The position numbers and the translations under genes were made by a program. This document shows, one piece after another, positions 4,483 through 63,301 of a DNA stretch of 64,000 nt. The stretch spans positions 62,868,001 through 62,932,000 of the forward strand of contig NC_086383.1 in assembly GCF_036588685.1 (NCBI RefSeq), given 5' to 3'. Every line of letters starts with the position of its first letter. Positions within the stretch are counted from its first letter, which is position 1. The notes under the pieces were generated by a model that saw nothing but the letters and a program-made list of their open reading frames with translations, searched no databases and was not told the origin of the DNA. The DNA is from Mytilus trossulus. Taxonomy: Eukaryota.

Positions 4483-4953
4483 ATATAAATGAAATAGAAA
4501 AACTATCAAGTAAGTTTGATTATAATTATAAGTTCGAAACATTCAGTGCACATGATTAATATTGCGTTTTTTTTAACAAGTATGACATTCACAAAAGCCA
4601 TTGGACCAAAGAGCCAGAAAATATGGAACTTTATCCTCTATTGCAAAGCTTACAAAACTTTGCCGATCATCAATAAATTAAGACGAAAGCTGAAGTCATG
4701 TATAAATTTGTATGATAATAATTAAATCCTTAGTCGAAATCAATAAACTAAAAAATATTAAACAATTGCAAGTCATGAATATTATTAGCACATAATTTAT
4801 TGGTTGTTACAGTTTTATCTAATCATGCATTTCCAGTTTTTGACACAGAGTGCGGTAGTTGTGCTATATTTTTCTATCGCATTGTTTTGTGTTTTTTATT
4901 TTGGTGACAAGAGTTAATGAGAAATCATCCATTTGCAGAAAACTACATGTAAA

Positions 4954-5292
4954 ATGTGCAATACACCAACATTTCAATATTATCTTGTTATATGTTGTTT
5001 AGGAGTTGGAATTCGATTATGCGATGCAGTCATTATAACCGGTGGCACTCTACATAAAAACAAAAGCATGGTTGCTGACACTATTTTTTCACTAGACAAT
5101 ATAGGTTTACAAATGTGTATAAGAGAAGCTATGCGATACAAATCATGTACTGGTTTAAACTATTGGCATGACAAGCTTCAATGTAAACTTTTGTCGTGGG
5201 ACCGAAACACATCTAACTTGCCTGTATCATTAGATGACCAGCTTATCGATAGCCCAGGACATATATATACAGATATCGATAGTTGGACAATG
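4954..5292 (+). CDS. Gene 1 exon 1: signal peptide + PAN/apple-like domain
   Basis: Hydrophobic N-terminus MCNTPTFQYYLVICCLGVGIRLCDA; PAN-like pattern MCIREAMRYKSCTGLNYWHDKLQCKL. Ends SWTM|GTAAGA at the same position as paralogous exon 1 copies (WKM|GTAAGG). Confidence 0.88.
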
Positions 5293-8200
5293 GTAAGATC
5301 AGGACATGTATTAACTGATAACGATAGTTAGACGATGGTAAGTCCAGAACATGTATTAACAGATTTCGATAGTTGGACGATGGTAAGTTCAGGACATGTA
5401 TTGACAGACATCGATAGTTTGACGGTGGTAGGTCAAGGACATGTATATAAAGATATCTATAGTTGGACGATGGTAAGTCCAGGACATGGATATACAGATA
5501 TCGATAGTTGGACGGTGGTAAGTCTAGGACATGTTTTAACAGATATCTATAGTTGGACGATGGTAAGTCCAGGACATATATGTTTATATATATATATCTC
5601 TAAATCTCGTCTAAACATCAACCCAACAATGTTAGATCTGTAAATTTGCTTTCGCAAATTTTTGGTTCTTCCCTCGCCGGGATTCGAACCCATGCTACTG
5701 TGATATCGTGCCACAAAATCGCCTGCACTGCAGCCGTCCCGTTAGACCACACGACCACTTTGGCTTCACAAAAGTAAAGCCATCGGTGGGCATGTGTTAC
5801 CTTTCCTCGTCAGTTTTAATCTAGCGGCGCACTACAGTACATGATATATTAGGCATGGATATGTTATTGTTACAGATCAGCTAAATTATCTATAGTAAAG
5901 GATCCTAAAACTTAATGTAAGATACAGTCACAGAAAATTATTATATTTATAAGTACGTCTGAGTCAGTGACAACTCTACAACAGATTTATCCATCGGATC
6001 ACCATCAATGATGGTGATACATGGCTGTGTACAATGTCACAGAAAATAATTGTATTCATATAGATATCGATAGTTAGACGATGGTAAGTCCAGGACATAT
6101 ATATACAGATATCTATAGTTTGACGATGGTAAGTCCAGGACATGTATTAACATATATCGATAGTTGGACGATTGTAAGTCAAGGAAATGTATTAACTTGT
6201 ATCGATAGTTGGACGATGGTAAGTCCAGGACATGTAAATACAGATATCGATAGTAAGACGATGGTAAGTCCAGGACATGTATTAACAGATTTCGATAGTT
6301 GGACGATGGTAAGTCCAGGACATGTATTGAGAGTCATCGACAGTTTGAGGATGGTAAGTTCAGGACATGTATATACATATATCGATAGTTGGACGGTGGT
6401 TAGTCCAGGACATGTACTAACACATATAGATATTTGGACGATTGTAGGTCCAGGACATGTATTAACATATATTGATAGTTGGACGATGGTAAGTTCAGGA
6501 CATATATATTTAGATATCGATAGTTGGACGATGGTAAGTCCAAGACATGAATATACAGATAAGTATCGATAGTTTTATGATTTTTTTATCCAATGCTTTT
6601 CGTAAAAGAATATCTGATATTCCGTATATCGAACGTAAAAGATGCTACATATATTGACCATGATTTGTGTGCTCCAAGGACTGAGCAAAGGTTTATGCCT
6701 TCAAGGCCAGGAGTTAAATCATAAAACATGTGATTAATGAGATAAAGACAACAACAGTCTAAAAACAATCTACACAGGGACTTAGGAATCAGTCGTAATG
6801 TCGCTCCAAGCCAGGGGAATGACAAAGGAGGGGATTATGATATCAGATAGACATTCCAACTCATCAGTCGAAAATAAACATATGAATAAAAAGGAACAAG
6901 ACAGACACTTAAACTATAGTACACAAAACAAAACAAACACACTTAAGATTAAACAAAACGAACCCAACAAAAACATCTGAATGATCTCCGGTGCTCCAGA
7001 AGTATAAGCATAATATGTTCTACATGTGGCACATATAGTGTTGCTGATATTAATATAAACCCAGTAGGTTTCATTCGTGAAAAGGGATGGTATTGTAGTT
7101 ACGACAGAAGGAACATATCCGCTATCATCTGTTCAACGGATTGTTTATATTAGTCAACACACTTATGGTGGCGAATGCCAGATTACATTTCTCGTTTATC
7201 CTAAATATTTCAATATATTTCAAGTCGGATATATGTAGTTAAAAAAAAATAAAAATAAAAAGCTTTGTTGCACTATTTAGCAGTACACAAAACAGACATA
7301 CAATTTTGGTCTTTTTGTTTGTTAGTCATAGCCATAGAGATTCAAAATTTGATCATTCTAGTGACTATTGTGTCGTGTTAATAACTGCTTGTACGAAGGC
7401 AATGTAATGAGTCATCTTCTCCCTTTGATATTTTTTTAATGGGTCTTTTGTGAACTCTACGAATTGAGTAGGGGTATATATTCCAAAGGCATTTAATCAG
7501 TTATCTCAATGTTTTCTCGGGTATATCAAATAAACGATACTTTTTTTCATTTCTTCCATTTTTAAATTTTTATTTTTCATTGTTTTGGAAATAATTAATA
7601 ACACATTACACCAGTATCAATATCAGAAGGTTACCGACATGAGTAGCAATGCGTTCATCATGTACATGATGTATATGCCATAAAGTGTCCTTGCGTCCTG
7701 AAAACATTTGAATCTAGCAACATTAAATACTAAAAACTATTTAATTGAAATTATTCACATTATGTATAGAACCAATCAGAACGAGTTGGATGTAGCATGT
7801 ATGCATCAGATCATTGTTCAAAACTGCAAGTTGCCTTATTGAATTGTTGTTGTCGTTCGGTGGCTGCTTTATTGCTTTATACCCAACACCTGAATGACTT
7901 AAGATTCATATCAATTTTTTTTTTAGAATTAGTTCCTGTTAATTAAGATATTATTGCTATGCTTTTATTACTGCAAAAAGGAGGACAGGGGTTATCATTT
8001 CAACAATTTAAACTTGCATTTTTATTTATTTTATTTTGAGTAAAACAAGTTTTTTATCAATATCGCAAAAAATAAAATCGTATTTTAGTCTGAAATGACA
8101 AGTTCGCATAAATTGATGCACGCAATAACTTCATAAGTCACAGCAATCTCCGTACAGCGCTCGTTTCCTTTCCGTATACCTAGTACACTACAATACAATG

Positions 8201-11200
8201 ACATGTTTAGTGTAGTGATACGAAATAAGTACGGAACGGATGTGAGCTCTGCGCCGGAGATTGAAGTCACAGTCTCATTTAATTTCATTAACAGGATTCC
8301 GATAGCTGTTGGCCCAATCCCTGTCCTGATGGTACAAAGTGTGCTCTGTCCAAAAGTAACGGTGATTTCTGCTTATCATATGGTGAGTTTATCTGACTTT
8401 TTATTTTAATTATGAACATGATAAAAGAGAGAATATATAGTTTTAAGGCATACATCATCAATAAAGTCGGGAAAATTGTAGAAGAATTTATCTTATCAAA
8501 TCAATAACTCATTTTCCGTAAAGATAATCATAAATTAGATATTGCGTATATGGGTTTGTCAATGCTAGAGTTATATCATTCAATAATAGGTCAAGCATAA
8601 TTTCAATTAAGTTTGAATGGAAAACGTCACATGCTATGAATGCATCACCCAACATGCGAATCTTGATAATGTCGAATTTTTACAATCATAAAATAGTCAA
8701 AATTGGCAGAATGAAAGATCACATGACTATACAGCTGGTGTTAAACTTCTCGGACTGCAAGCACATGTCGCTATTTAGTTACGTCACCGACACATCTTTC
8801 AATTAACCGTTTGTTAACATTTAGGTTCATGTTTCAAAGGTTTTGGTTTTGCCATTTGCTTTGGGATTTTCCTTTTAGAATTTGTGACAAAGTTCGGTGA
8901 TTTTCTGCAGAAACAAACAACCAGCGTTATCTGCCGCAAAATTTCCCAATTGTACATGATCACACTTAAAGGGATTTTAGCAACATTAATCTGTTTTTTA
9001 CCTAAAATCATCCGAGTTCCTGTTAATAAATGCAGACGCTTCTTTAGTATCGAATCTCTCTTATTTCACAGTTCATTGGATTACCTTAGACTTTGTTCCT
9101 TATCTTGATGTTCTGTATAATTGATTTACAAGATAATGATACGTTACACCACTGTCGCTAAATAGATACACCGATATACCACTGTCGCTGAATTGCAGCA
9201 TTGGTATACCACTGTCGCTGAACTGAATCATCGGTAGACCATTGTCGCTGATTTAAAATATCGGTAACCCGCTGTCGATGTATTGGATCATCGGTATACC
9301 ACTATCACTGAATAAGAACATCGGTATACCGCTGTCGCTGAATTAGGACATCGGTATACCGCTGTCGCTGAATTAGAACATCGGAATACCGCTGTCGCTG
9401 AATTAGAACAGCAGAATACCACTGTAACTGAAAAAGAACATCGGTATACCGCTGTTGCTGAATAAGAATATCGGTATACCAACGTCACTGAATGAGAACA
9501 TTGGTATACCGCTGTCGCTGAATTAGAACATCGGAATACCGCTGTCGCTGAATTAGAACATCGGAATACAGCTGTCGCTGAATAAGAATATCGGTATACC
9601 AACGTCACTGAATGAGAACATTGGTATACCGTTGTCGCTGAATTATGACGTCGGTATACCGCTGTCGCTGAATTAGAACATCGGTATACCGCTGTTGTTG
9701 AATTGAGTCATCGGTATACCACTGTCGCTGAATTGAATCATCGGTATACCACTGTCGCTGAATTGGATTATCGGTATACCGCTATCGCTGAATTAGAACA
9801 TCGATATACCGCTGTCGTTAAATTGAATCATCGGTATACCACTGTCGCTGAAATGGATCATCGGTATACCGCTGTCACTGAAAAAACCGGTATACCACTG
9901 TCGCTGAATTAGAACATCGGCATACCGCTGTCATCATTGATATGTTAATGATATTAAACTAACTGTTTATAAAACTTCCAAAATTCTCAAATATTAAGGC
10001 TTTTCTACCTCATGAATACATCACTGTAATTGGCAAAACTTTTAGGAGTTTTGTTTATCCTCAATGATCTTTAACTTCGTACTTTATTTGGTCTTTTGAA
10101 AAAAATTTTGATTCGAGCGTCACTGATGAGTCGTATGTAGATGAAACATGCGTCTGTCGTATATATAAAATTTCAATATTGGTATATATGATGAATTTTT
10201 TCAGAACATCAATATACCATTTGCTTAATTTCAAACGTTAATGGTCCTTAAAACCTGATCTGTTTTCTTTTTATTTTGACAGACTGTCCAAGTGTTACGC
10301 TCCACAGTTGTGGATTTGAGAATGAGAATGATACATCATGTATTTTCAAGAATTCATTGCAGGATGATTTTGATTGGACACGTCATTTTGTAAGTTAAAA
10401 CACTTTGGTTTCATGGGAAAACGTTCAAACTCTATATATATGTATATAATTAAGACCCTTTCAAAAATGTAGAATTTATTATAAATTAAAAACGGATATT
10501 ATCATCATTATGTTGAATAGTTTTTTGGCAAAAGGATTTTATTCTGTATCTTGTGAAAAAATATCAGACATCTAAACGTTTAATAACAAATTTTAAACCT
10601 CATCGAAGTACAGCCTTATTACTTATTACTAATACTAGTAACTAATGCGACAAGTGTTTGATATTGAAATGCTATGATTTTATTTATTTGACATATTGCC
10701 ATGCGTTGTAATCCAATGGAGTTATTCGTTAAAAATATATGTCAATTAAATAATTATGTAGATAAAGAAAACAATATATGGCAATGTAACACTCATGAAT
10801 GATGTTCGTTTTGAAATATAAGAGATATATAAAACATATTGACCCAATATGGCCGACTTTGATGAAAATAAAACACGGAGAGCAAAATGCAGATCTGGAC
10901 TTAAAGCGCTGAACCTAAGGCCTTAAGAGCAAATCCGACAAGAGATAAAAATGTCCATCAAGTCTAGTAATTTGTATTGAAGTTGTTTTGTTGCTGCCCT
11001 TAAATTATTAATTAAGTTTTGCAGTTAGTTACTATTATCTTGAATATTATAATAGATGAAAATAAACTGTAAACAGCAAAATTGTTAAGCAAAGTAAGAT
11101 CTAAAAATACCTTTGAGAAGTAATTGCCCTCGTTGTAAAGTTTTAACATTTTTTTTTGTAACTCTTTTTAATTTTTACTTACATCTTCTCCTCTGAAACT

Positions 11201-14200
11201 ACTCAGGCAAATTTACCCAAATTTGGCCGCAATCATCGTGTAAGTCTTTATATAAAAATGTTTCAGATGACCCCGCCTATCAATCATTATTGCTGATATA
11301 TCTATTTATAGAACATAGGGGTAAAATGCAAGTTTTGTCTTCTATTGTTTTAAGCTTCATAGATAGAGAAAATCGGAAAGGTACAGATATGTTCAGAATA
11401 ATGCACTCTACCAACGATCCAATCGATCAACGTCAAAGTGAAATTTTTACTGTTGATGTCAACTACAATTTCGAGTCAACAAAGAGTTAACGCAATGTGT
11501 TCATGAAGAGTACGAATTGAATTTTCACGCATATCTTCATGCTTGATCTTCTCTAGGCTGAAGTTCTTATCAAACTTGGTCCATCCAACATTATAAAAAG
11601 TAATAAAAAGAAAGTCACTTTAACATTTTGATAAACGGAGGCTTTTGATATAAATAAGTAGGAACAATTGTATATTATAATCGAATGTGTTTCTTATTCC
11701 TGCGTGTTTTAAAATATTGAACTGTCACTTAACGTTGTCTTTTCTTTTTGCGTTAATCTCGATATTGTCATACTCGCGCGAGGTTTGGCTAGCTATACTA
11801 ATGTTTATTCATGCATTCTTTAAATTTTAAAATGTCCTGTACCAAGTTAAGAATTCTTTTTTTTTTGTATTTGATTCGTACATCTGAATAGAATAACTAA
11901 TCAGAAAAGCATTTAAACTGATGAATTTTGAACAGCGGTATACTACTGTTGCCTTTATTATTCATAAAAATAAATGAAGGTTATTTTCTATTCTATTTTA
12001 GTTTTTTTTGTTTCATCGTCAAACTTTCAAATATCATGGCATACATCTTTGTGAGTTGATTAACCCCAATTTTAAATAAGGAATGATCCTTAAAACGTTT
12101 TCTGTCAATGATGTTCAAATCTTAATATTACCAAACTTTCCGTTAACTAGATGACACTATTGATATTTTAGGGTGGTACCCCTTCATCAAATACTGGACC
12201 AACAAAGGCAGCTTCCGGAAGTTACTACATGTACACAGAGGTGTCAAACGTACAGAATGGGGATAGAGCTGTACTTACAACACAAACAGCTAGCTTAACG
12301 GGTATGTTCAACCCACCATTGTTTCCTTAGAAAGTCCTGTGCCAAGTCAGGAAAATGGCCATTGTTATATTATAGTTCGTATCTGTGTGTTACATTTTAA
12401 TGTTGTGTTTCTGTTGGGTCGTTGTTCTCCTCTTATATTTGATGGGCTTCCCTCAGTTTTAGCATGTAACCCGGATTTGTGTTTTTTTCATCAATTTATG
12501 AGTTTCGAACAGCGGTATACTATTGTTACCTTGTTGAATAATAAAGAAACAACACTTTATACAGATTATTTGTCCGTAGAAGTTTTTCAAATTTGTCAAT
12601 TTCGAACATCTGAAACCAAATTACTAAATGTAACAAATATCAATTAAAATGAACCAACACACGTAATGAGATATATAAAACAGTAACGTACTATTTTGAC
12701 ATTATTAAAATATATCTATTTTTCAGCAAGTAGTTTCTGTCTGTCATTCCAGTATCATATGAAGGGCGCGCCTGGAACATTAAAAGTATTTGCTGGAGAC
12801 AAAAATTCTTCTTTAACAAGTATCTGGGAGAAATCTGGAGTGCAACCATATCCTGAGCAATGGAAATATGTTAATATACAAATACCACAATTCAATAACC
12901 CAGTTGTAAGTATGTTGTTATTTTATTAGGATTTAGTGATCTTTAACTATATGTTGTATTTTTTTTAAAAAACAACAAAGACTCGGTATCCTCATTTGTA
13001 ATGAAGTCAAAGAAAATGTAATGGGATTGAATTTCGTAAAACTGCAGAGTTCTGTTTTAGTTTAAAATTCTGTCATTTGCTTAGGCACTTATCGTTGAGA
13101 CATCTCCTTGAAGGATCGTTTTTGTTGTTTTTGTTGTATTTTTCTTGTCACATGTATGTGTGTGACCAAACAATGAAATTGACGTAGATGCAAACTACAA
13201 TTCATGCAATAACTCAAATAGCACCAGATATTCTGAGGAAAAAAAGATGTAGAAAACTGGTTTAAAAAAGGACCCACTATTATAACCGATTAATTAAATA
13301 TCTATATAATAATTCGGTACTGACTTGATTTTATAGTTTACTATTTAAATGAACCATTTAGAAATTTTGTAATTAAACAGTAACTAAGTTTCCAACTGCC
13401 TCATGTAAAGTCAGCTTTAGATGAACTTTGCTAAAAATTTTGCCCTGTTTTGTTTACAGCTCTTCAACGTTTACGGTCCGGTCCGTAATTATCATTGGCT
13501 TTTAAAAAGTGTCTTTGAGCGTTCCAGATGAAAGTACATGTATATCCAGAAAATCGCTTCCAATGCATTGAATTCATTTAACGTGTTGTTTTTATATTTG
13601 TACATGTATATACATACTTACAATGTAGACATACCAGACTTTGCTGTTTCCTTCTGGTTATCCAGCAGTAAAAGAAATAGTCTAAATTTTTATTTACTTA
13701 CCCAACTTTAGGTAGCACAATACAAAGATTTTATAACTCCAACTCCAAAATTTTAAAATGCTGTTACTTTCTTAATAATGCTTGAACATTTATAAAAGTG
13801 GTAGTTTTGGATAAGTAACAGATTACACTTTCAAATTAATGCAATGTTAGTATTATGCAACAATTTTGTAACCAATTATAATGTTAGCTGTGTCTAAAAT
13901 ATTGTTCACAAAATTTCCACTTTCAAATGAATTTAGCTTCTGCATATGTATCCCTAGAGGGTTGATTTAAATATATGTTGTTCCTATGGCCATTATTTAC
14001 AAAAGAGTGTCTCAAATTTCAGATAGAATGTCTAGAACAAATTTGACACCTAATTAAACATTATTTTCTTTTATATGGTTAGGATCTTTACACTAATTAG
14101 AGATTTATGAGAGAATGGAATACCATAGAGACAATCTGAGACACACTTTTCAAGCCAATGATGTGTTGATTAAGATTTCGTTAAAATTTTCTGTTTAGTT

Positions 14201-17200: not shown

Positions 17201-20200
17201 TCTAGTAAAGGAATTGAACAATCTAAACGTAGGAATAGATTGAGATTATAGAATATTGTCAGTTTTATTATATGCGGACGACATAGCTATATTAGCGAAA
17301 TTGGAATTGGACCTTCAAGGTATGTTGGATAAACTTCACCAATGGTGTAAGCGATGGCGAGTATTGATTAACACTGAAAAGTCGAAATGTATTCATTGTA
17401 GGAAAGGGAAATCTAAACAAACTGAGTGTAATTTCACCGTGGGCAGGAATAAGTTGGAATTAGTTAACGAGTCCAAATATTTACGTATAACATTTAGCTA
17501 CAACGGTAGTTTTTTGTCAAATGTGGATCTTCTTGCGAAAAGTGGCGGACGAGCACTTGGGAATATAATTGCTAAAATCCATAATGTTAACATGATTAAG
17601 GACTTTGGATATAAATCATATGAAACATTATTCAACTCAGGTATTGTTCCTATTCTTGATTACTCGTCTGGTGTATGGGGATACCTACAATATCAGCTAA
17701 TAGACAATATTCAGAACAGGGCTATTCGTTACTATTTAGGAGTACACAGATTTGCGCCTATCCTGGCTATACAAGGATATATCGGCTGGATCCCGAGTCA
17801 GTATCGGCGTTGGATCAATATGGTGAGATACTGGAATAGACTCATTCGATTTGACAACAACCGCATCACCAAATCAGCATTGAATATTGACTATGATTGT
17901 TGTGAAAGTAACTGGTGTAGAGTAGTAAAGGATATACTGGACCAGCTTGATCTAGGACATTTTACGAACTGAAATCAGAGGTCGGTTTATCTTTGGTTGA
18001 AACTAACATTTTTCGTGAATTTGAACTTGAGTAAAACTAAGCGGTCACAATTTCGATGTGGAATTTTACCATTAAGAGTGAAAATTGGTAGATACTCAAA
18101 CGAGAGGATAGAAGACAGACTTTGTATATTTTGTAAAAATCAAGAAACTGAAAGCTTAATTTTTTTATCACAAATATTTTTATGTCTATATATTTTTGAA
18201 ATTTACTTACGTCAACAAAAGATTAGAACGTGATATAATTGTTTAATAATTGTTTTACTTTATTTGAGGTGACTTATAGGTCCATTGGGCCGGGTGTATT
18301 ACTTTTTATCATATATTATATGTTTATAATCTGTACATAATTTACAAATGTCACTATAATAAATAATTTAATTACTTAATTACTTACTGTACACGTAAAA
18401 CACGAATTTGGTAATTGTCATTGTTTGTCGGGAATACACGTATTTGTCATAATTATCCATTCATTTGACTGTTTCTCCCCGAGGGCTAATCATAAACTAT
18501 GCCATACGGCATGGAGAGATTACTAGAATACTTTGAAAGGGTTAAAGCTATTATTTCGTACCCAACTGTATTTAAATTTTAATTCATTTACTTATTTACT
18601 CATTCATCAATTTTATATCAAATTTTTGCTCTCTAAAATTTTATTAATTGTTTTAGTTCGAAATTATGTTAATTACCACATGATTAAAAATTAAATATTT
18701 AATGCCAAATAAGGCGCAAGCCAGAGCCGACCGTAAAAGGGCTGTATAATCAGTCAAGGTCGTTAAAAACTTCCAATTGTTCAAATGTATTTGACAGAAA
18801 AAACAGTTATAGTGTATTCATTCTTCACACAAAAAATAGAAGTAGAGAACGAAGACGACCTATGCACAAATTACACTAATTTTCAGAGAGGATTTTTTAC
18901 ATGCTTGATCGTGATCAAGTGTTTATATTATCTTGAATTAAATCGAAATACCCAAATAAAGTTTTAAGCGTCGTAAAACTATATATGCAGCAACGGATGC
19001 AGACATTATTTCTCGCTGCATTGAAGACCATTTGGTAACCTTCTGCTGTTGTCTTCTCTATGATCGGATTGTTGTCTCTTTGACACATTCCCCATTCCCA
19101 TTTTCAATTTTGTTATAATGACTTTTGTGTGTATGAACACTATTCCTTAAAAATTGTTATATATTTCAATGATTTCTAACGAAATATTAACAAAACGTTC
19201 GCCTTGTATTTTTATAATTAATACTTTTATTGTCATATAAATAAAAAGAACTAATCTCTGACAAACATAACATATATACAAGATTATACAGTACAATATT
19301 GAAATACAAAATGTAGCAGTTCAAATTATTGTTTTGGGTCTCCCGTCCTCAGTTCTAATGACTCTTATTAAGGAAACTGTATTTTTAATTTGACTGTGAG
19401 ATATGAGTTTAGTAATATTCTAAATTGAAGCATGTTTTCTTTAGAAGTGTTTTTCGACTTCGAATTGATTTTTTCGTGGAGTCAAAATATCTTTTTTTCT
19501 ATAAAAGTTATATATATCATGTAAATAGTAAGAACATTTGAGAAAGAAGTGTTTTTCGTCCTCAATCTCATTACATAATTTGCAATATCTCTGATATCTA
19601 GGAATCTTAAGATGTCTGACCTTTTCTATTAAAAGAGTGTGTTCGCTAATATTATTCCATTATTCCAATTTCCTACTTTTTTCCCTATGAATTGTAAGTT
19701 TGCTATTTGTTCAATTCACAATTTCCTTTTTGTCCAATCAGAACATCCAATCAACATCATGGCATAATGCTGTTAGCTTTATCAACGTTATTTCCAAATG
19801 CAATTAGTAACTCAAAATTATGAATGAATCCACCGTTTCACAATTTACAGCTACAGGTTCAAATGAGGTACCGTATGAGAGTAAGTTAGGGACATTATAT
19901 ATTTCCTATGTATATATATGATAAAAATGCCCCTTCATAAATTATCTGGCTGGGAATCATACTCAAACCAATGTGATATCTTATCTACAAAAAAAATATA
20001 CATTAAGAATTAAGTATTTATTACATCTATTACATTCGACATGTATATCATAAAATTAAATAAGTCAATACCATTTATACTATTTTATATATAACTACAT
20101 GTATTTGATTTGTCATATTTGTAGTAATAATAATTCAACAAATTCTTTTAATAATACTTTTTTATTTCAAAATAGAATTTGTAGAATATTACTACATACA

Positions 20201-26200: not shown

Positions 26201-27784
26201 TTGGCCCAAAAAAATAACAGTTTGACAATACTGTTAAAATGTAAAATGGTTGTTATTAATTGGAAAGAAGAATGCTTCTGCTACAAAAATATGGGCTGTT
26301 TTTGACAATATAATACACATATATCGGGTACTAACATCATTTAAACATGCAAAATTACTAAAATTTTCACAATTTTAGCATGTTAGTTAAATTTCAGACG
26401 GTTTACCTCTTAAATGAAAGTGGCCGAATGTGTATTCCTTCTTAATATTGAAATGTAAATTGTATGATAATACATAACATATATCATGTATATAAAGACT
26501 GAGGATGAACACAGATGCGGCCACTTTCATTTTTGACAAAACCAATCTGAAAAGTGACACTTTTGACATATTTGATAGATTTTTCAAATTTGAGCTTAGA
26601 TGGGATCGTTGTAAATGACTGAATCAGTTAAAATATTTCACATCAACTAGTTGAATCAACTGAAATAGACACTTTAGTGTTTAAAGGGGCACTAGCTGAC
26701 AAATTCATTGTAACCGATTTGACTCAAATTCTCATATTTGGTTTATAACAATGTAAAACATTTATCCAAACTATAAAAAGTCTAAAATAAACAGTTTACA
26801 GAGCATGGGGTAGATAATATATAGGTTCGTTTCGTGTGTATTTTAGTCCAGACGCCATCTAATTAACTATCGATTTGACCTCAGATGACCATATAAGCGA
26901 TGTAAACAAAAATAAAGATACGAATAGATTAAAACAACACGTGCAATTGCATTTTTATAGGTCTGTTTGATTTGATTTTATAGATTAAAAATAGATGTTT
27001 CTAATTGTTTTTAACCATATAAGAATGATTTTATGTGCATCCAATTAGTAATCAAATGATTTACCGTAGTTTCACTTTCATTGTTGACATTCTTTTTATT
27101 TAAATAACCAGTACACGTACAATGCATGCGTTGTCAATCTCTAGCTAGGGGTTAACTTGAAGTTCACATGAATACCGGTTAGAATGATGATGACGTTTTC
27201 ACTTGCAAGCGAATCAGTCAAAAATTATGTTTAATCGCTTATTTCAACAAAATTAAAGGAAATTGATTGCTAAAAGCAAATTATTATTTCATTATTCCAA
27301 TTTGATTAATGATTGATCTAAAAAAAATCATACTTTATTTTTTTATATATATCGTAGCTAGTGCCCCTTTAAAAAGTATACAAAATCTTTCGTCAGATGA
27401 ACCTGAAATGTGAAACCAAAACCGCTCCCTAACGGACCTACTCCTTTACAAACATTACCATATGATTGATATTTATGTCATTACCGAAGTGCTGACTACT
27501 GGTCAGGTGATATGTACCAAGATGACTTGTGTGTCGAATAAAACTAACCTAGAAGCGAAGCAAAAATTAAAAGATAGATTTAAAAAATACAGACATATGT
27601 TTGTCAAATTTGAAGAATAAGGTTGTTTCGTTGTATTGCAAGACTGTTTGATTTTTTTTTTCAGATCACGATAGAAGGAACCAGAGGTACTCACTTCACA
27701 GGTGACATTGCTATTGATGATTTGATTCTAAAAATATCGAGTCGTTGTTGTAGGAAATGGTACGTCATTATTTCAACATCATAA
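4954..27784 (+). CDS. Gene 1 (whole span): secreted signal peptide + PAN/apple + 4-Cys EGF-like + MAM domain protein, 312-320 aa; join(4954..5292,8295..8382,10283..10389,12172..12301,12727..12905,27665..27784)
   Basis: Six exons with GT-AG boundaries and compatible phases (0,1,0,1,0) give one open frame. MAM motifs CGFE..C, DDFDWTR, TPSSNTGP, GSYYMYTE, FCLSFQYHM and GDIAIDD appear in order. Confidence 0.88.
5251..6572 (+). repeat. 45-bp tandem array (about 18.5 units) derived from the exon 1 3' end plus splice donor, split by an insertion
   Basis: Unit AGTCCAGGACATGTATTAACAGATATCGATAGTTGGACGATGGTA. Seven full units at 5251-5565, one split unit, ten full units at 6087-6536. Explains ORFs 5335..5643 and 6081..6572. 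Confidence 0.97.
5584..6057 (-). mobile_element. SINE-like element with a tRNA-like segment, inserted in the 45-bp array
   Basis: Minus strand 5765-5671 has A-box-like TGGTCGTGTGG and B-box GGTTCGAATCC. The element ends in a (TA)n tract and interrupts one repeat unit at its TATA stretch. Confidence 0.7.
6830..7175 (-). mobile_element. Decayed 3' end of Penelope-like retroelement
   Basis: Colinear with 36160-36530 (GGTGCTCC.GAAG..TAAGCA, TTGTAGTTACGAC, GGAACATATCCG). Confidence 0.65.
8295..8382 (+). CDS. Gene 1 exon 2: 4-Cys EGF-like module
   Basis: AACAG|GAT...TAT G|GTGAGT encodes DSDSCWPNPCPDGTKCALSKSNGDFCLSY, homologous to exon 2 of copies A and B. Not in the ORF track frame. Confidence 0.9.
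9150..9935. repeat. 30-bp minisatellite, about 26 copies, in intron 2
   Basis: Unit CATCGGTATACCGCTGTCGCTGAATTAGAA. Explains ORFs 9288..9608 and 9703..9912. Confidence 0.97.
10117..10160 (+). ncRNA. Type I minimal hammerhead ribozyme motif within a dispersed repeat (about 9940-10200)
   Basis: GCGTCA-CTGATGA-stem II-GAAA-CATGCG-TC-TGTCGT. Catalytic boxes are intact; stems have mismatches. Confidence 0.7.
10283..10389 (+). CDS. Gene 1 exon 3: MAM domain N-terminus
   Basis: GACAG|AC...TTT|GTAAGT encodes (D)CPSVTLHSCGFENENDTSCIFKNSLQDDFDWTRHF. Confidence 0.92.
12172..12301 (+). CDS. Gene 1 exon 4: MAM domain
   Basis: TTTAG|GGT...ACG G|GTATGT encodes GGTPSSNTGPTKAASGSYYMYTEVSNVQNGDRAVLTTQTASLT. 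Confidence 0.92.
12305..12540 (+). repeat. Dispersed SINE-like repeat with core CCTGTACCAAGTCAGGAA and end GAACAGCGGTATACTACTGTTGCCTTTATT
   Basis: Related copies at about 11780-11960 (+), 15100-15200 (-), 38125-38220 (-) and 43710-43990 (-). Confidence 0.7.
12727..12905 (+). CDS. Gene 1 exon 5: MAM domain
   Basis: TTTCAG|CA...GTT|GTAAGT encodes (A)SSFCLSFQYHMKGAPGTLKVFAG...IWEKSG...QWKYVNIQIPQFNNPV. Confidence 0.92.
13711..14433. mobile_element. Non-autonomous TTAA-type (Kolobok-like) DNA transposon
   Basis: 22-bp TIR GGTAGCACAATACAAAGATTTT; flanks are TTTA and TTAA. Confidence 0.8.
17165..18388 (+). mobile_element. 5'-truncated, disabled non-LTR retrotransposon (CR1/L2-like RT C-terminal region)
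   Basis: TLFSIFINDL, LLYADD, KYL, PILDYSSGVWG and FRCGILPL...RLCIFC motifs; in-frame stops; AATAAA followed by a short TTAC-type repeat tail. Confidence 0.9.
20284..20428. mobile_element. Small GC-rich MITE
   Basis: CAGGGGCGGGTCTAG at the left end versus reverse complement of the right end CAGGCGCGGATCCAA. Confidence 0.55.
20649..21707. mobile_element. MITE with about 47-bp TIRs and subterminal palindromic repeats
   Basis: TIR ATGTTCCGGACCATATGAGTATTTGGACCAT.CGCGTATGGT.ATGA; repeated palindrome GACCATACGCGTATGGTC. Confidence 0.85.
24289..25573. mobile_element. Foldback-type element with about 490-bp modular inverted arms
   Basis: 24289-24775 aligns to the reverse complement of 25088-25573. 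The arms are built from degenerate 21-bp units (TGATGTGGTCTTGTCATTCTT). Confidence 0.85.
25980..26023 (-). ncRNA. Type I minimal hammerhead ribozyme motif (best-preserved copy), in repeat about 25940-26165
   Basis: Minus strand GCGTCA-CTGATGA-GTCTTATTTAGTC-GAAA-CGCGCG-TC-TGGCGT. Stem I pairs fully, the GUC cleavage triplet is present, and stem II has one mismatch. Confidence 0.82.
26179..27447. mobile_element. MITE with TAGGTCC-type ends, host of a nested element
   Basis: TAGGTCCAGTAA at the left versus reverse complement TAGGTCCGTTAG at the right; interrupted at a TTAA site. Confidence 0.6.
26685..27368. mobile_element. Nested Kolobok-like MITE
   Basis: TTAA-AGGGGCACTAGCT ... AGCTAGTGCCCCT-TTAA: perfect 13-bp TIR and TTAA TSD. 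Confidence 0.92.
27665..27784 (+). CDS. Gene 1 exon 6: MAM domain C-terminus
   Basis: T-rich TTCAG| acceptor; encodes ITIEGTRGTHFTGDIAIDDLILKISSRCCRK. Ends either by read-through to TAA at 27782-27784 or at donor TG|GTACGT (27759/27760). Confidence 0.88.
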   Translation: MTIEGTRGTHFTGDIAIDDLILKISSRCCRKWYVIISTS

Positions 27785-36159: not shown

Positions 36160-37056
36160 AAGAGGGACGAAATATACCAAAGGGACAGTCAAACTCACAA
36201 ATCTAAAACAAACTGACAACGTCAAAGCTAAAAATGAAAAGGAAAAACAGAAAAAACAATAGTACACATGACATAACATAGAAAACTAAAGAATAAACAA
36301 CACAAACCCCACCAAAAACTAGGGGTGATCTTAGGTGCTCCTGAAGGGTAAGCAGATCCTGCTCCACATGTGGTACCCGTCGTGTTACATATGTGTTTAC
36401 AAATCCGATAAATAGTCTAATTCGGTAGGTCAGGGGAAAGGGAAGGGGATTGTAGTTACGACGTAAGAAACATATCCGATATCATTTGTGAAACGGTTAT
36501 TCCATAACAGTTAACCAACTCGTGATAGCGTCCGTAAAATTTACGAAGGGATGGTTTCAACTTCACCATTCGGAACTATTGGTTTACTAGGTTCCTTGTG
36601 AGCAGCAACCCTTAACCAGGAAAATCATGAAAGGAAATGCAAGCACGGGAATATCGTATCAATTGGGAGATATATACCCCGTATGCAGGTGCTGTTGGAC
36701 TGTTGCTACTTAGAAATGGAAAGTTTACAATTGGAAAGCTGAAATCATCTCTTTTGTCGTAAAGTTTTGTTTTCAACCGACCCTCATTGTCAATTTCTAG
36801 ATGTAAGTCAAGATATGAAGCCGACTTAACTGTATCTGTAGTATCCTTTATCTCTAGTTCGATGGGATAGATGCGTTCCACATAGTCACCAAATTTTGAA
36901 TTGTTTAGTGACAGAACATCATCTATATAGCGGAAAGTAGAGTTAAAGGATATTGCTAACTTCTTCCTAAGAAGTTCCTGCATGAAGTAAGCCTCATAAT
37001 AATAAAGAAACAAGTCGGCAAGTAGAGGGGCACAGTTTGTTCCAATTTGAATGCCA
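36160..37056 (-). mobile_element. 5'-truncated Penelope-like retroelement (RT C-terminal half + 3' UTR)
   Basis: GIQIGTNCAPLLADLFL, FRYIDDVL and LYDKRDDFSFPIVNFPFLSSN...AYGVYISQLIRYSRAC. No C-terminal GIY-YIG domain before the 3' end. Confidence 0.85.
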
Positions 37057-37863
37057 ACTTCGTACTTTATTTGCCCTTTTTAACTTTTAAGGATTCGAGC
37101 GTCACTGCATAGTCTTTTGTAGACGCAACGCGCATGTATCTAGCGTAAATATAAAATGTAATCCTGATATTTTAGATGAGTTTATGTATAACATATATGC
37201 CAATACAATAAGCCCGTTCATTGAAATATAAGTAAAACACCAAGAAAACAATGGAAAAAAGTTCACTTTATACTTAACTATTTCATCAGTTATGAATCGT
37301 TTAAAGGAAAATATGTTTCATATAACCCAAAGAAATAGTTCTGCATGATATGTGCCTTGTACAGTGTATTTAAAATACTAAAAAAGGCATATAATATCAT
37401 TGCTGTTTATGAAATGTTTGTCATATACTCCCTGACTTTGTATTTTAACTTTTTAATGTTGTTATTTATTTATATTTTTTTTTTGGGGGGGGGGGGGGGG
37501 GGGCTGGCGTCACTGCTGAATCCTTTGTAGAAGAGATGCGCGACTGGCGCAAATACAAAATTTCAATCGTTGTATTTATGATGAGTAATACATGACCGAA
37601 CAGTTCTTTAACATTTAAGTTATCATATTTCGTGTTTAACTTTATAGTTATGTTGAGTCTGATTGGTTTGGCTATATATTTCAATCAGCTAGGAAATATA
37701 TACAACATACAAACCTTGAAGAGTTGTATAATATGACAGGACCTTGACATATAATATGTAAAAGTTTGTTATACAATATGAAACAATGTGATATTTCTTT
37801 GGTTTAAGTCACTAAAGAAGTTTTAACAATAAATTTTTTCCAAGACTAATTCATATTTTCTGT

Positions 37864-38325: not shown

Positions 38326-39345
38326 AGGCAACTCTTTGCTTTGTATCTTGTCTTGAGGAGGGATACATCCTATTTTGTAAAGATTCACTCTGATTCAAAC
38401 AAAAAAAATCTCTCAAACTGACATTGTCAAGTTGCTTGATTTCTAGATTGACAACATATATGTTACGTTTGGAGATCGTATTTTTCATCAGACTGTCGGA
38501 ATCCAAAGGGAACAAATTGGGCCCGTCTTGTTGTCGACTTGTTTCTTGATTATTACGAGGCTAACTTCATAGAGGAACTTCTAAAAAGTTAGCAACATCC
38601 TTTGACTTTCCGCTATATAGATGATGTTCTCTCTTACTAAATAACACACCATTTGTTGACTATGTTGAACGAATATATCCCATAGAATTAGAGATAAAGG
38701 ATAATACAGATACAGTTAAGTCGGCCTCATATCTTGACTTGCATCTAGAAATTAACAAAAGAGATGATTACAGCTTCCCAAACGGAACTTTCTATTTATA
38801 TGTAGCAACATTCCAGCAGCGCCTGCATACGGAGTATATATATCCAAATTGATACGATACTCCCGCGCTTGTATCTCCTATCATGGTTTCCTTGATAGAA
38901 AATTGCTGCTCACCTGGCAGCTATTAAACAAAGAGTTCGAAATGGTGAAGTTGACATCATCCTTTCGTAAATTTTACAGACGCCATCACGAGTTAGTTGT
39001 CTGTTATGGAATAACCGTTTCACTGATGATAGCGGATATCATCTTATGTCGTAGCCCTTTTCATGATTGTGACCTACCAAATTAGACCTTTTACCGGATT
39101 TGTAATAATATAATAATATAATTTGAGACGGATGCCACATGTGGGGCAGGATCTGCTTACCCTTCCGGAGCATCTGATATCACCCCAAGATGGTGGGGTT
39201 CGTGTTGTTTAGTCTTTAGTTTTCTAAGCTTTGCTTTCTGTACTACAGTTTGTCTGTTTGTATTTTTCAGTTGAAGCCATGTAGTAGTCATATTTTTTTC
39301 AATCTATGAAATTTACTGTCCCTCTAGTATCTTTCGTCCCTGTTT
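38326..39345 (+). mobile_element. Decayed Penelope-like retroelement in copy A intron 3
   Basis: FRYIDDVL, KSASYLDLHLEI and AYGVYISKLIRYSRAC with frameshifts; same 3' end (GTATCTTTCGTCCC) as other copies. Confidence 0.85.
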
Positions 39346-39870: not shown

Positions 39871-41455
39871 AGACAGCCTTGACTCTCTCGGCTTCTTGTC
39901 TGTTTAAGCTTGTTATTTGCACTCGTTATGAACAAAAGTAACTCCAAAGTAACTCCAACACAGAGTTGTCAGTTTATTTATAATCTGTGAGATTGACTAT
40001 CCCTCTGGTATCTTTAGTCCCTCTTTTTTTAACACAGTTTCTTTCAAACTTGAACATCTTATAAATACCTCTATGCTATAACAAAAATACTTACCCAACG
40101 CAGCACAATATCCTAGTACTGCATTTATTCTAAAACCAGTTGTCAGCATGATAACGGGTTGTTTTTTTTATACATATTTTTTGTTAATAGTATGATACAT
40201 CATTGATAATATTATGACACTAATATCCCTAACGGTATGTATTAAGAGGTACGAAAGATACCAGAGAGAAAGTAAAACTCATAGATAGAAAATAAACTGA
40301 CAACGCCATGGCTAAAAATAAAAAGACAAATAGACAAATAATAGTACACAAGACACAACATAGAACACTAAAGACTAATCAACACGAATCCCACCAAAAA
40401 ACGGGGGGATGTTAACAATGTTATTAAAGTTTCAGAAACGGATTTGGTTTTTCAATTTATCGTATGATGTTACCTTTAGTTACATCACATGCATGTTTAG
40501 GTAGTTCGATAATATATTGGCAATCATACAATATATATGTTGACATGTCTATTGTTATTATGATATGGTTGACAACTGTAAAAGAAACGATCTTAATGAA
40601 AGTTTTTATTTGAAATGGTATTATAAAGCGTATAGATATTTCATTGATTCGATCGTCAAGGGAAATCTTATGTGTACGGAACGCGCGTAGTCAGGAACAA
40701 AATGTAGATAAAATGAGTTTGCATATATGACTTATTTATAAACAGCTTCAAGAGAATATCAATTATACATTCAGACACCGTTAATGTTTCAAAATTAAAG
40801 TTTATAATATTTGATTGATAAATATATCTTATATAAACTGTTATTTATTACGTGAACTAATTTATCTCAAATTACCACCAATCTCTTATATTAAGATTTC
40901 ATCGGAATTGATAAAGCGCTCGAGTATCTGTAAATTATTTTGGCTCAAATGTATTTGCTTTCCATCATAATTAACAAATAATCGTTTTCTTTGCGCTATA
41001 TCATCATTGTTCAAACAGTTCGATATAAGTAAGACTAATGTGATTAAGTTATCGAATATTTAAAATTTATACATATGATTTACAATGTGTGAACATTAAC
41101 TAAAACTGCTTTATCAATGATGTCTTGATATAAGTTTTTAACTTTCTGTCTATTCGAAATAACATTAAATAAGAATATGATGCACACTTAATAACCTGCG
41201 TAGCATGTGCACTAGATTTGTTTAATGTTATTTCGGATAGAAAGAATAGACAAAAAAATACATAACAGGCATTCCTTATAATTTAATTCAAAGTTTCATT
41301 TTAAGCCGGAATAAATCATGACAAAACGTTGATGAAGTCATAGTCGCATGACAAAACGATGTCTATGAGCTGATAAACAACATATGGTTAGCCAATAAGA
41401 AGACGCGTTACATTCAAAATCAAATTATTATCAAATGAAACAAATTCGATATCAC

Positions 41456-41607
41456 CTTTACATAGTCACAGCAGGATTCTAAGTCGAAGTGTGTGAACCG
41501 TAAGGCGACTTTATTACCAATTCCAGCTTCAATCTTCCAAGTTTCGTTCATTTTGTGAACATACTTATTTGGGAAACCTGGTGAAGATATATTCTTCAGA
41601 AATGTTT
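41456..41607 (-). pseudogene. Copy A exon 3: CUB N-terminal half
   Basis: (E)TFLKNISSPGFPNKY...TWKIEAGIGNKVALRFTHFDLESCCDYVK|GTGATA; 152 nt. Confidence 0.88.
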
Positions 41608-42945
41608 CTAAAAGTAAACACAATGAATTTTAGACACTTTCTGCACAGCCTAAAAAAATATCTTATAAAAATGTTTTGAAATAATGATGAAGTTTTTATC
41701 GGATTATCGCAACAATATAGTTATAAATTTTGCAAGTTGTGATTTTTTTATTTTTTTTTTGGTTTGAAAGTTGCATTATCTTTATCCATGATGTATGACA
41801 TCAGCGCATGAGTGCAATCAGTGAAATTCTTTTTGAAAGTTTTGGAATTGATTTGAGATCTTAATGACTCTCCTGATGTTATCGTTGTTCTTATATTAAG
41901 TTGGTTCATGTTATTATGTGAAACTCAGATTTCAAAAATAACCAAAAAAAAAAAAGACTAATGAAAATATTGGAAATACCAATTGTCTTTTCATACTTGT
42001 GGTTCAAGTAACAAAGTTCCAGAATAAATAAATTTGTGATTGATTTCATGATATGTTAAGATTGTTTTCTTTAAATCATAAAAATCATTTTTAACATGGG
42101 AAGCAAAAACTGTTTATCCAACAATAACACGTCAGTTTACCCCGGCCTTGCATAGGGTTCTTGCTCATCAATTTTAGACTTATGAGTTTTACTGTCCCTT
42201 TGGTATCTTTCGTACATCTTTTATAGTTATTACATGTAATAATTGCTGTGTGCTTTTTAGTTCAGTTTTTGTCGTTTTATAATGTTAGTATTAACTGTGT
42301 ATCTTTTGTTATTGTGCATTGAGTTTTAAAATCTTAAACTAAAGAGCTGTAGGACTGAAAATAAAACTAATAAATTAAAGGAAAATTTTACCCAACAAAA
42401 AACAACAACAAAAGCTCAAAAATACCAAACGATTAGCAAACGACTGTCAGATTCCTGAATTGATGTTACTCTGATAACTTTTTCTATCGTCATATTTTTG
42501 TGAGAAATAGTTAGGAATTATCAAGATTAAGTGTGGATGTAGTTACACAAGTATACGAGTATTTTAAGAAATCAAAAAGGGGATAATGGGTATATATATA
42601 TATCATACCACATCTTCTTTTTTATATAGCTTGGAAAAGTTTTGAATCCTATCTAACAGAAATTCAAGAGAAGCTTTTTACTTAAAGAAGCATGACCGAA
42701 ATTACCTGTGAAAATTATAATTATCATTATGAATAATACATGCTTGTAAGATTTGGAAATAACTTAGTACATAATTATATGGTTCGTTCCGTAAAATTAA
42801 ATATCCTGTTAAATTGATACTTGCATCTCCAAAAGATCATTATATTAAAGAAAATGCAAATTAAAATAAAACATTTAAATTGTGTTGGTTGTTTTTATAA
42901 TTTACGAAAGAAACGTGAATAATTGTTAGAATTAAAAATTGATAA

Positions 42946-43253
42946 AACAAGAATGTGTCACACAGTTCCAGGATGCCTAATCCTCATTATAATTGTTTAT
43001 CTTCAGTGGACCGTGAAAATGGGGGAAATCTCTTATTTTGCATTAAAATTAGGAAGATCATATAATAAGTAACATGTGTACTAGTTTTCAAATTGATTGG
43101 ACTTTTAACTCATCAAAATTTACCTCGATCAAAAACTTTACCCTGTAGAGGAACAGACGGACAAACACGCGGTAGAACAGACAAACAGACGAACGAACGA
43201 ACAGACGGCTCCACAGACCAGAAAACCTAATACACCTAAATGGGGCATAAAAA
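42946..43253 (-). mobile_element. Helentron/HINE-like non-autonomous element next to the copy A exon 2 donor
   Basis: GACG/GACA/GAAC tetranucleotide tract; AACAAGAATGTGTC and GGGGCATAAAAA ends in T-rich context; absent at the matching site of copy B. Confidence 0.6.
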
Positions 43254-43258
43254 CTTAC

Positions 43259-43358
43259 CGTTCACAATGTACTTTAAGCAAACATGATCATTTGATGTTA
43301 ACGTTATACATCTTGTTTTTTCTGAGCAAGGATTGTTAGGCCAGCAACTATCTTTCTT
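43259..43358 (-). pseudogene. Copy A exon 2: 4-Cys EGF-like module
   Basis: TTTCAG| KKDSCWPNNPCSEKTRCITLTSNDHVCLKYIVN G|GTAAGT. Confidence 0.88.
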
Positions 43359-45431
43359 CTGAAAAAGGTTGCAAGAGGTGGTTTAAATAAGCACATTATA
43401 GATACCAGGATTACATTTTGTATCTACGACAGATGCGCGTTTCGTCTACAAAAGACCCATAAGTGACGCTCCAATCGAAAAACGTTTAAAAGGCAAAATA
43501 AAGTACGAATCTGAAGAGCATTGATGAGCACAATAGCTAATAAAGCTTCGGTTATCTATTCCTGAGGTAGAAGAGCCTTAATATTTCAAATATTCAAAAG
43601 TTGTAAACAGTTAATTGACATTGAATTGAAATTCACATTTAATAAAACAAAATTCTTTGATATCAGCTTGTGATATATTAATTACTGCAGGTCCCTTTGC
43701 AATACGGATGAATAAAAGGCACAGTAATATACCAGTGTTTGGAAGTAGAAAATTGATTTATAAAAAACAAATTTGGGTCACAAAATAAAACTAAAAGAAA
43801 CACATCAAGTATAAAATAACAACAAAAAAACAGTAGAAACACGAAAGAACAACAAAAAAACACAAAAAACGACAATAAAACACACAGAGAAACGAATTAT
43901 AGTATGATGATTGCCATTGTCTGACTTGGTACAACGTTTTAAGAAAAATGGATGGTTGAAAAGAATTTTGTGGCTAGCCAAACCTCTCGATTTGTATTGC
44001 AATGTTAGATATAAAATAGTAATTCTAACATTACATGACAAATAAATGAAAGAATATACAGGACAGAGAAATACAATATTAAACAGTGTTTTTCTGTCCT
44101 GTTAAATTGTTCCTTTTAAAAGTTTTGGATTCTCATAAATTCCATGTAAAACTTTTTGACTAGTTTGATTTCTGTAATTTATTCTTACATACTTTTGATT
44201 TTTTAACCCTGTATGCGTTCATTGCCTATGTAAATTTTAAAATTGTTTATAATCCTGGTACTTTTGATAACTATTGTATGCACATTGAACGACAAATTTA
44301 TGTGACGTATATAATTTTTATGACGTCAGACACTCAAATCAATCCATGTGTTCGTAGATAGTAGATGTTATTGTGTCCTGTTAAATTGTTATACGATGAT
44401 GACTGATGTACCCATATTTTGACTATTTTATTAATTGTGACTGTTTATTTAACGCATCATGTAAATGTAGCGGAATTTGATGAGACTGTTATTAAAGTGA
44501 GAGGGTTAGCGCTATAGAACCAGGTTTAATCCACCATTTTCTACATTTGAAAATGCCTGTACCAAGTCAGGAATATGACAGTTCTTGTCCACTCGTTTTT
44601 GATGCGTTTTGTTTTTTGATTTTGCCATGTGATTATGGACTTTCCAAATTGATTTTCCTCTGAGTTCAGTATTTTTGTGATTTTACTTTTTTCTGTATAT
44701 TGATCTATTTTCTAGGGTATACATTTTTGCTAATTGAATAAAAAATGTCGTGGATATTTAATTTTGATGTTTTCCCAGTCTTTGCATACACGTCTTTAGA
44801 CAGTTTATAATTCGTTGAACATTTGAATTTGTGGTTTAAATATACCCTCGAAACCCACGTAAATTGATATCTAGCGAAAAGTAATGAATATGCGGTACAA
44901 TTGAACATTACCACATGTGTATAGTTAAAAAATGAACCAGTCTAATAATTTGTATACGCCAGACGCCGGGATCGACTACATAAGACTCATCAATGACGCT
45001 CTGGTCAAAAAAGAAACGAACGCCAAACAAAAATGAAGAGCATTGATGGCCCAAAATTCCAAATAAATGTGTCAAATGGTGCTAAGAGATTTCTTTTTAT
45101 TTCTCATTATGTTTATAGTTGAATAGCTCCGTTCCCGCAGAAAGGGGTATGTAAGTAATTACAATTAGTGTATTACTCAGTCCCTTCTGTACAACCCATA
45201 TTTAAAAGAACAAAAGAGTTCGAAACTGTTCAACCGATCTTTGAAATAACAGAAGAATCCGAATTGCATTTCAGAAATTGAATACAGAAACCGTAAATAG
45301 AATATTTTGTTCAGTTCATTCGGTTGCAAAAAAAATACATTGGTAAGATTATTTCCTTTTTAATATTTGAAATGCTAACAGGGGATTCAAAACATTTGAA
45401 TAGAAATAAAAAAAAGTTTAAAACACGTAAA

Positions 45432-45752
45432 AGAAGAGGGACGAAGGATACCAAAGGGACAGTCAAACTCGTAAATCTAAAACAAACTGACAACGCCATG
45501 GCTAAAAATGAAAAAGACAAACAGAAAAACAATAGTACACATGACACAACATAGAAAACTAAAAAATAAACAACACGAACCCCACCAAAAACTAGGGGTG
45601 ATCTCAGGTGCTCCGGAAGGGTAAGCAGATCCTGCTCCACATGCGGCACCCGTCGTGCTGCTTATGTGATTACAAATCCGGTAAATAGTCTTATTCGGTA
45701 GGTCAAATTCATGAAAGGGAAGGGGATTGTAGTTACGACGAGAGGAACATAT
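45432..45752 (-). mobile_element. Young Penelope-like 3'-end fragment
   Basis: Close match to 36160-36475 and 56597-56786. Confidence 0.85.
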
Positions 45753-45880
45753 ATAATCAACTACTTCAATCTCTTTTAAACAATTTAATTAGTATATCCA
45801 TATTTTTTATAAAACAGGCTATTTATTAATTTCATAGAATTATTAATCTAAATATAAAAGAAAACATGAACGATCCTTAC

Positions 45881-46202
45881 CATTTTCTGAAATGTCTGAA
45901 TAGCTATACCCTGGCGTACTAACCAACTGACTTTCTAAGTTCGAGTCTGACAATAGCTCGCAGCTAAGAAAATCCTTTTGAAAATTTATACTGTCGCAAT
46001 TCTTTATTCGTAAGCATCCCCGAATACACATTTTAGGACCAATATTATCGTGAGTTAATATTATGTGAGAGGTAATTTTCTTGTCATTTTGGAAACTTCC
46101 ACCATTTACAGTATCTTGGAACCAAATTCTAAGTTAAAGATACAAAATATAAATAAAAATGATTTTCATTTTAGATGAAACAGAAGCGCAGTTATGTTTC
46201 AT
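45881..46202 (-). pseudogene. Copy A exon 1: signal peptide + PAN, with a nonsense codon and a frameshift
   Basis: MKHNCASVSSKMKIIFIYILYL*LRIWFQDTVNGG...MCIRGCLRIKNC...; ends TCAGAAAATG|GTAAGG, lacking TGGAA. Confidence 0.9.
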
Positions 46203-63235: not shown

Positions 63236-63301
63236 AAATTACTTTAAAAATTCGAAATATAAAAGACAACATAATTAAAAGAAAACATGAACGATCCTTA
63301 C

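Follow-up and report, generated by a model that had tools for sequence, protein, structure and literature searches.

What becomes of a gene whose first exon-intron junction has been multiplied into a tandem series of splice donors? This question is raised by a locus in a window of 64,000 nucleotides from Mytilus trossulus (contig NC_086383.1), i.e., the whole stretch of DNA that was analysed and to which all coordinates below refer. A sequence-only reading of the window had proposed that donor choice switches between a full-length PAN-EGF-MAM protein and a 125-aa PAN-only or NMD product, with the length of the array acting as a tunable knob. Our analysis favours, at a probability of about 65%, a plainer reading: the array would be a length-variable 45-bp minisatellite that drifts without selection, and its first donor (5293) would be the one mainly used, giving a 320-aa protein.

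The gene lies on the plus strand. Its first coding exon (4954-5292, called exon 1 in the following, with an upstream non-coding exon being possible) comprises 113 codons, ends in phase 0 and encodes a hydrophobic N-terminal helix, presumably a signal peptide, followed by a PAN/apple domain. The Pfam match to PAN_1 (E 0.0016) is under the curated cut-off, and a comparison of exon 1 with the PDB sequences gave no sequence hit. The predicted structure (pLDDT 84.5) matches apple/PAN and HGF-N structures (5 hits at E <= 0.001, best E 4.7e-4), and according to this model exon 1 is a PAN/apple fold. Exon 2 (8295-8382), which is preceded by the acceptor TAACAG, encodes a four-cysteine EGF-like module. 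It does not show the six-cysteine EGF pattern, has no Pfam family at E <= 0.1 and is similar to just the initial portion of an EGF module. Exons 3-5 (10283-10389, 12172-12301 and 12727-12905), which have AG/GT boundaries, encode a MAM domain together with exon 6. They are identical to the respective part of the public model P0045, whose Pfam MAM match has an E-value of 4.4e-21 (75.8 bits, cut-off 26.4). Exon 6 (27665-27784) is the likely last coding exon with the MAM end and the stop codon and matches the C-terminus of P0001 (82% over 22 aa). When joined by script via the donor ATG|GTAAGA at 5293-5298, the six exons show canonical boundaries and an open 320-aa product, whereas each of the 17 other donors leads to a 125-aa product in the window allele. 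That is, 5293 is the sole productive donor in this allele, as had been claimed.

For the array itself, TRF reports two blocks of period 45, namely 5255-5581 (7.3 copies, score 428) and 6058-6561 (11.2 copies, score 649). They contain 18 in-register GT sites: 5293, 5338, 5383, 5428, 5473, 5518 and 5563 in the first block, followed by 6084-6534 at every 45 nt in the second. In block 1 (5254-5581, plus strand), the exonic seed unit, i.e., exon 1 codons 101-113 with donor 5293, is accompanied by six copies, whose donors are 5338-5563, as well as by a partial unit, and the exon 1 frame is kept. Block 2 (6058-6539, plus strand) provides the 11 donor-like sites 6084-6534, which are out of the exon 1 frame and downstream of the stops of an insert. 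The amplification of the exon 1/intron 1 junction into about 18 donors is thus confirmed, as is the in-frame unit of 15 codons, given the period of 45. The composition of the unit needs revision. While its length of 45 bp stands, it had been described as 42 coding bases plus GTA; since all 17 later copies carry a T at donor position +6, it is best described as GTAAGT preceded by the final 39 bases of the exon, with a breakpoint that is ambiguous by a few bases. The later copies keep the GT in 17/17 and show KG|GTAAGT in 13/17 cases. Matches of the KG|GTAAGT type number 17 in the window compared to 3.3 expected, a value reached in 0/100 shuffles. The second unit contains the in-frame TAG that had been noted ahead of the second donor (5329-5331, plus strand); the unit consensus is TGG at this position, and one other allele has GAG. 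Array frames gave Pfam hits to Flagellar_put and HZS_alpha, which we rejected as identities, since no stretch passed by itself.

Contigs from 3/3 DNA runs cover both blocks of the array with a summed depth of tens to a few hundred, which rules out the assembly artefact that had been named as a possible origin. On the other hand, the repeat array is not continuous, as had been assumed: a 476-bp insert (5582-6057, minus strand) interrupts unit 8 within an AT run and divides the donors into 7 + 11. The insert belongs to the dispersed repeats of very high copy number, as its summed contig depth is 0.5-2 million in 3/3 DNA runs compared to tens to a few hundred in its flanks. Its minus strand shows an A-box-like (5757-5747) and a B-box-like (5689-5681) Pol III motif. 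A tRNA-derived SINE would be a candidate given these box-like motifs and the very high depth, but its boxes would be expected at the 5' end and not ~300 bases inside the insert, as found here. ARAGORN detected no tRNA in it, a comparison with Rfam provided a chance match only (E 0.53), and its flanks show no clear target-site duplication. Loose ends and a back-joint of 6033 to 5625 in the DNA runs suggest a tandem arrangement of this repeat at other places. Within the array, the insert brings 7-8 stops into every plus-strand frame and moves the array phase to 2. Block-2 donors are thus unable to extend exon 1 productively, whatever position 5329 holds, i.e., 11/18 donors are unproductive in any allele carrying such an insert.

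We compared the donors by their U1 duplex energy, using a short U1 motif. The first donor (ATG|GTAAGA) yields -8.0 kcal/mol, 13 copies -9.1, one copy -8.8 and three copies -5.1 to -5.4, such that 14/17 copies score above the first donor. It is thus correct that the first donor agrees less well with the consensus than most copies, but the gap is slight, and three copies are weaker. With regard to the gene's four other donors (-5.4, -7.3, -7.6 and -9.2 kcal/mol), the first donor is stronger than 3/4.

The named homologues are all Mytilus proteins. In the homologous models P0003, P0011, P0018, P0019 and P0033, a W-x-x is joined straight to the EGF-like exon, and since they splice at the same W-x-x position, we consider 5293 the ancestral donor. 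The closest homologue (84% aa; P0044 and P0046) reads SWTMVSYHI-stop without an array and may be a sister-species ortholog or a paralog. Contigs with an exon 1 of ~90% identity are present in all three DNA runs. Array units are found in 0/45 other fetched proteins, a set that includes the repetitive low-identity phmmer hits P0005 and P0027. Given this and the array-less P0044/P0046, the array arose recently, and other family members function in its absence.

Only one public model was found for the locus, namely the predicted XP_063406272.1 (P0045, M. trossulus), which is identical to exons 2-5 of the gene. It is not spliced via 5293. Its first coding exon (6261-6353, plus strand) covers two array units, from which the 14th donor (6354), located in the most divergent full unit, is joined to 8295. 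The model drops exon 1, omits the exon at 27665 and continues, 45 kb away, in a paralog CUB exon (58194-58352). It is probably a chimeric annotation, since exon 1 and the MAM end are skipped and a CUB exon from a paralog 45 kb away is joined. A protein with exon 1 of this gene joined to its own downstream exons was not found in our protein searches; the one for longer proteins that contain exon 1 was weak, as it also missed P0003.

Three further paralogs are located within the window, two of them with an exon 1 disrupted by stops or frameshifts and one with a GC donor. Exon 1 of paralog A (45876-46200, minus strand) contains an in-frame stop and is shortened by 5 bases directly ahead of the donor, and that of paralog C (63300-63640, minus strand) contains a frameshift and a stop; these broken copies suggest a family of fast turnover. 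Paralog B uses the GC donor ATG|GCAAGT (50693-50698, plus strand) at the conserved position of intron 1, where paralogs A and C have GT. Paralogs A (40496-46615, minus strand) and B (49938-56598, plus strand) form an inverted head-to-head duplication with 78-82% identity over the longest blocks, and both contain PAN, EGF-like and CUB exons. Among the public models, P0001, P0003, P0004, P0011, P0015 and P0026 combine one N-terminal PAN module with varied C-terminal parts (MAM, EGF, CUB), besides others that we take to be lectin-like and fibrinogen-like. This variety suggests exon shuffling in the mussel PAN family, on which we found no paper in the open-access literature (mussel PAN/apple-EGF family).

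To assess allelic variation, contigs from 4 of the 22 listed runs were compared over 4800-8500, i.e., from the DNA runs X1, X6 and X18 and the presumed RNA run X20. Of the 22 runs, 20 contain part of this DNA, and none is registered as RNA. Differences between alleles were taken from those listed, rows 5572-5609 were excluded, each key variant corresponds to one contig, and differences within the array could be misplaced by one unit. Run X1 is near-identical to the window and may share the window's own source, such that it is perhaps not independent. Exon 1 shows 0-4 differences over 261-334 bases among the alleles of the three DNA runs. The TAG at 5329 is retained in X1 and X18. In X6, one 356-base contig (5125-5480), which is anchored in unique exon 1, carries 5329 T>G, resulting in GAG and thus no stop. 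Furthermore, an X6 contig places 6258-6395 and 7123-8204 as neighbouring pieces, i.e., a 727-bp stretch (6396-7122) is absent in one allele. The deletion removes the donors 6399, 6444, 6489 and 6534 and extends into the unique intron, so it is no clean change of unit number. Still, array length varies between alleles as had been expected, with 6395 joined to 7123 and four donors gone in this one contig. In X18, one donor GT is apparently lost (5429 T>A) and the 4 bases at 6561-6564 are missing, each based on one contig. The only contig of the presumed RNA run X20 (177 bases, 5067-5243, depth 2.3) is within exon 1, with no coverage of exon 2 or of any donor, and uninformative on expression or donor use.

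These alleles bear on the idea that TAG-less alleles could insert variable numbers of 15-aa linkers between PAN and EGF. Such an allele does exist (X6, 5329 T>G), with the donors of block 2 being unproductive all the same. When computed for the TAG-less X6 allele, donors 2-7 result in products of 335-410 aa and the block-2 donors in 229 aa, where the computation is based on the four X6 differences listed, which stem from at least two contigs, and leaves out one difference of the key contig.

Selection on the array was assessed from the changes among its copies. Relative to the unit consensus, we count 11 synonymous, 52 missense and 2 stop changes (17/80/3%) compared to 27/103/5 (20/76/4%) for all possible single changes in the unit, and the mismatches per codon position (31/30/23) show little bias; all these counts are from array copies that are not independent of each other. 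A protein-coding VNTR under selection, i.e., an open frame with an excess of synonymous changes, is not observed: changes are random-like, and the insert has stops in all frames. The donor hexamer shows 3 mismatches over 16 full copies. The conservation of donor positions +1..+6 is equalled or exceeded by 4/45 six-base windows and that of -3..+6 by 10/45 nine-base windows. Thus, the array copies are likely drifting without selection, as far as their sequence can tell. Using a crude null model (10 arrays, about 12 donors), the chance of a donor-spanning array is ~0.05 per 64-kb window, and such arrays are therefore expected in a repeat-rich genome.

The array ends in a degenerate terminal unit without donor (6540-6574, plus strand), which shows a 4-base indel at 6561-6564. 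An ancestral intron start had been suspected here (6559), since the array end resembles the intron starts of paralogs in 8/10 and 7/10 bases. This likeness depends on the 4 bases at 6561-6564, which the X18 allele lacks; without them, 27/31 positions agree with the unit consensus. The ancestral start is hence disfavoured, and the array end more plausibly represents a final unit that has degenerated and carries an indel of 4 bases. The true ancestral intron start may be just behind it.

Going by its sequence, the array is an exon-intron boundary minisatellite of the 'mirage' or F7 type, as it shows three of the defining features, i.e., a boundary-spanning first unit, a reiterated splice signal and haplotype instability. 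According to the available parts of the respective reports, amphioxus mirages are boundary-spanning tandem copies in Adh3, troponin C, the globins BflGb6 and BflGb9, and PGBD5, with units that are 81-100% alike, haplotype length differences and reportedly undisturbed splicing (PMC3087553, PMC3902484). Both systems have an invertebrate host, boundary-spanning copies, most of them with a splice signal, and a copy number varying by haplotype. Unlike the mirages of a cephalochordate, the array of the mussel, a mollusc, provides 18 donor sites within a mostly exonic in-frame unit, is split by a high-copy insert, and its unit 2 has a stop that varies by allele.

The second precedent is intron 7 of human F7, where a length-polymorphic 37-bp VNTR starts with a unit over the exon-intron boundary (Borensztajn et al. 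2006, PMC1557585). In the minigene results covered by the available part of this study, strengthening the downstream copies to consensus values of up to 91 was not enough for them to compete with the first donor, for which perfect copies were needed (PMC1557585). As in F7, the mussel donor is reiterated by a boundary-spanning first unit and the length is polymorphic. The F7 unit combines 4 exonic with 33 intronic bases, is out of frame and has identical donors, whereas the mussel unit consists of 39 exonic and 6 intronic bases, is in frame and shows slightly stronger later donors. The same part of the study lists F7, LAMIN B2 and PDGF as using the authentic donor only, while CBS (intron 13, 15-20 repeats) and the interferon-inducible 6-16 (25 pseudo-sites) use the first donor and the two nearest copies (PMC1557585). 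The mussel array is similar to CBS and 6-16 in copy number. Unlike CBS, 6-16, LAMIN B2 and PDGF, for which no in-frame protein extension is described in the available part of PMC1557585, the mussel GAG allele could add steps of 15 residues if later donors were used. No boundary-spanning case is contained in the available parts of PMC10078293 and PMC10726533, and no paper on a mussel boundary minisatellite was found in the open-access literature. The array described here would thus extend the known class of boundary minisatellites to mussels.

Given these observations, the preferred reading of a drifting minisatellite with a mainly used first donor would involve the following steps. As the unit anatomy shows, a duplication of the junction with a GTAAGT donor seeded the array, presumably by slippage or unequal exchange. 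The DNA further shows that the array then expanded and mutated, received the high-copy insert and, in some alleles, became shorter by several units. The most upstream donor would be favoured via exon definition from the 5' side, as suggested by the F7 and mirage precedents; these are all from chordates, such that mollusc donor choice is addressed here by analogy. In TAG alleles, a leak to donors 2-3 would provide a stop-containing RNA (computed product) that is probably cleared by NMD. NMD is generally expected for such RNAs, given a TAG well upstream of later junctions, which is a rule not specific to mussels. In the GAG allele, the same leak would yield a minor protein with 15-30 extra residues (computed product). 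In both cases, the leak would be a by-product and not a selected knob. Several observations run counter to the preference for the first donor, i.e., P0045 uses 6354, no protein with exon 1 joined to its own downstream exons came up in our searches, 14/17 copies outscore 5293, and the GAG allele leaves donors 2-7 open.

Alternatively, the array might be leaky to a larger extent, i.e., donors 2-3 would take a sizeable share, with a real but likewise unselected effect. This would result in less full-length protein in TAG alleles and in 15-30 additional residues, repeating the last PAN strand, in GAG alleles. We consider such leakage unlikely. The later donors are ~1 kcal/mol better, a GAG allele exists, and a single substitution in repeat 2 of CBS is said, by the title of a CBS study, to prevent alternate splicing. 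Also, two pseudo-sites are used in both CBS and 6-16 as given in the available part of PMC1557585. The strengthened F7 copies (consensus value up to 91), however, failed to compete (PMC1557585); furthermore, the first mussel donor is strong compared to the gene's other donors, and linkers of this kind are present in 0/45 other fetched proteins.

It is even more doubtful that a single base switches the meaning of the array between alleles. Here, use of the later donors would lead to RNA decay or a secreted PAN-only protein with TAG, while with GAG the last PAN strand would be repeated 1-6 more times, in steps of 15 residues, ahead of the EGF-like module. If true, an intronic minisatellite would be creating proteins of diverse length by way of splicing, within a bivalve family that evolves fast.

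Donor choice would hardly matter if the gene were silent or decaying in this lineage, or if transcription started within the array as in P0045. We regard this as very improbable. The public model indeed lacks exon 1 and starts in the array, and the neighbouring paralogs A and C are broken. On the other hand, the gene has six open exons with canonical boundaries that encode 320 aa, its exon 1 is little changed between alleles (0-4 differences over 261-334 bases), and P0045 looks chimeric (MAM end skipped, paralog CUB exon).

Even a selected knob or diversity generator, in which the balance of full-length against PAN-only or linker-extended protein would depend on array length and on the allele at 5329, has a precedent, because the nearest copies in CBS and 6-16 are usable and cited CBS titles reportedly tie the repeat of this gene both to its splicing and to the enzyme activity. 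We give it slightly less credit still than a silent gene: the unit length is divisible by three, alleles differ in length and in the stop, GT is unchanged in 17/17 copies of the window and a fold is predicted for the PAN-only product (pLDDT 84.5), but an in-frame unit length is expected by chance in one of three cases, there is no coding constraint, donor conservation is nothing special, one GT is apparently lost in X18, the F7 copies do not compete, the observed length change takes away only distal, unproductive donors, and TAG and GAG share an A that departs from the TGG consensus, such that GAG would appear to be a further random mutation of the stop.

Under the drift reading, the locus provides a natural test of whether molluscs prefer the first donor or whether NMD masks the use of others, since it combines a weaker first donor and an in-frame unit with alleles that have and lack the stop. 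If later donors turned out to be well used in the GAG allele, an intronic repeat would be turning into variable protein sequence. The locus is also a warning for annotation, as its public model omits exon 1 and begins within the array.

Further repeats are found in the window. Intron 2 of the gene contains a second minisatellite (9148-9932, 30 bp, 26 copies), which has no 12-mer in common with any of the 6 exons or their edges. A 70-bp unit is repeated 19 times with 94% matches in intron 1 of paralog B (51323-52649). It derives from part of a reverse-transcriptase-like element, which is also present at 36379-37058 and 38343-39104. Finally, the 14.8-kb intron 5 of the gene harbours an open stretch of 242 aa (17244-17972, plus strand), which, from its motif, we take to be a fragment of a LINE reverse transcriptase.
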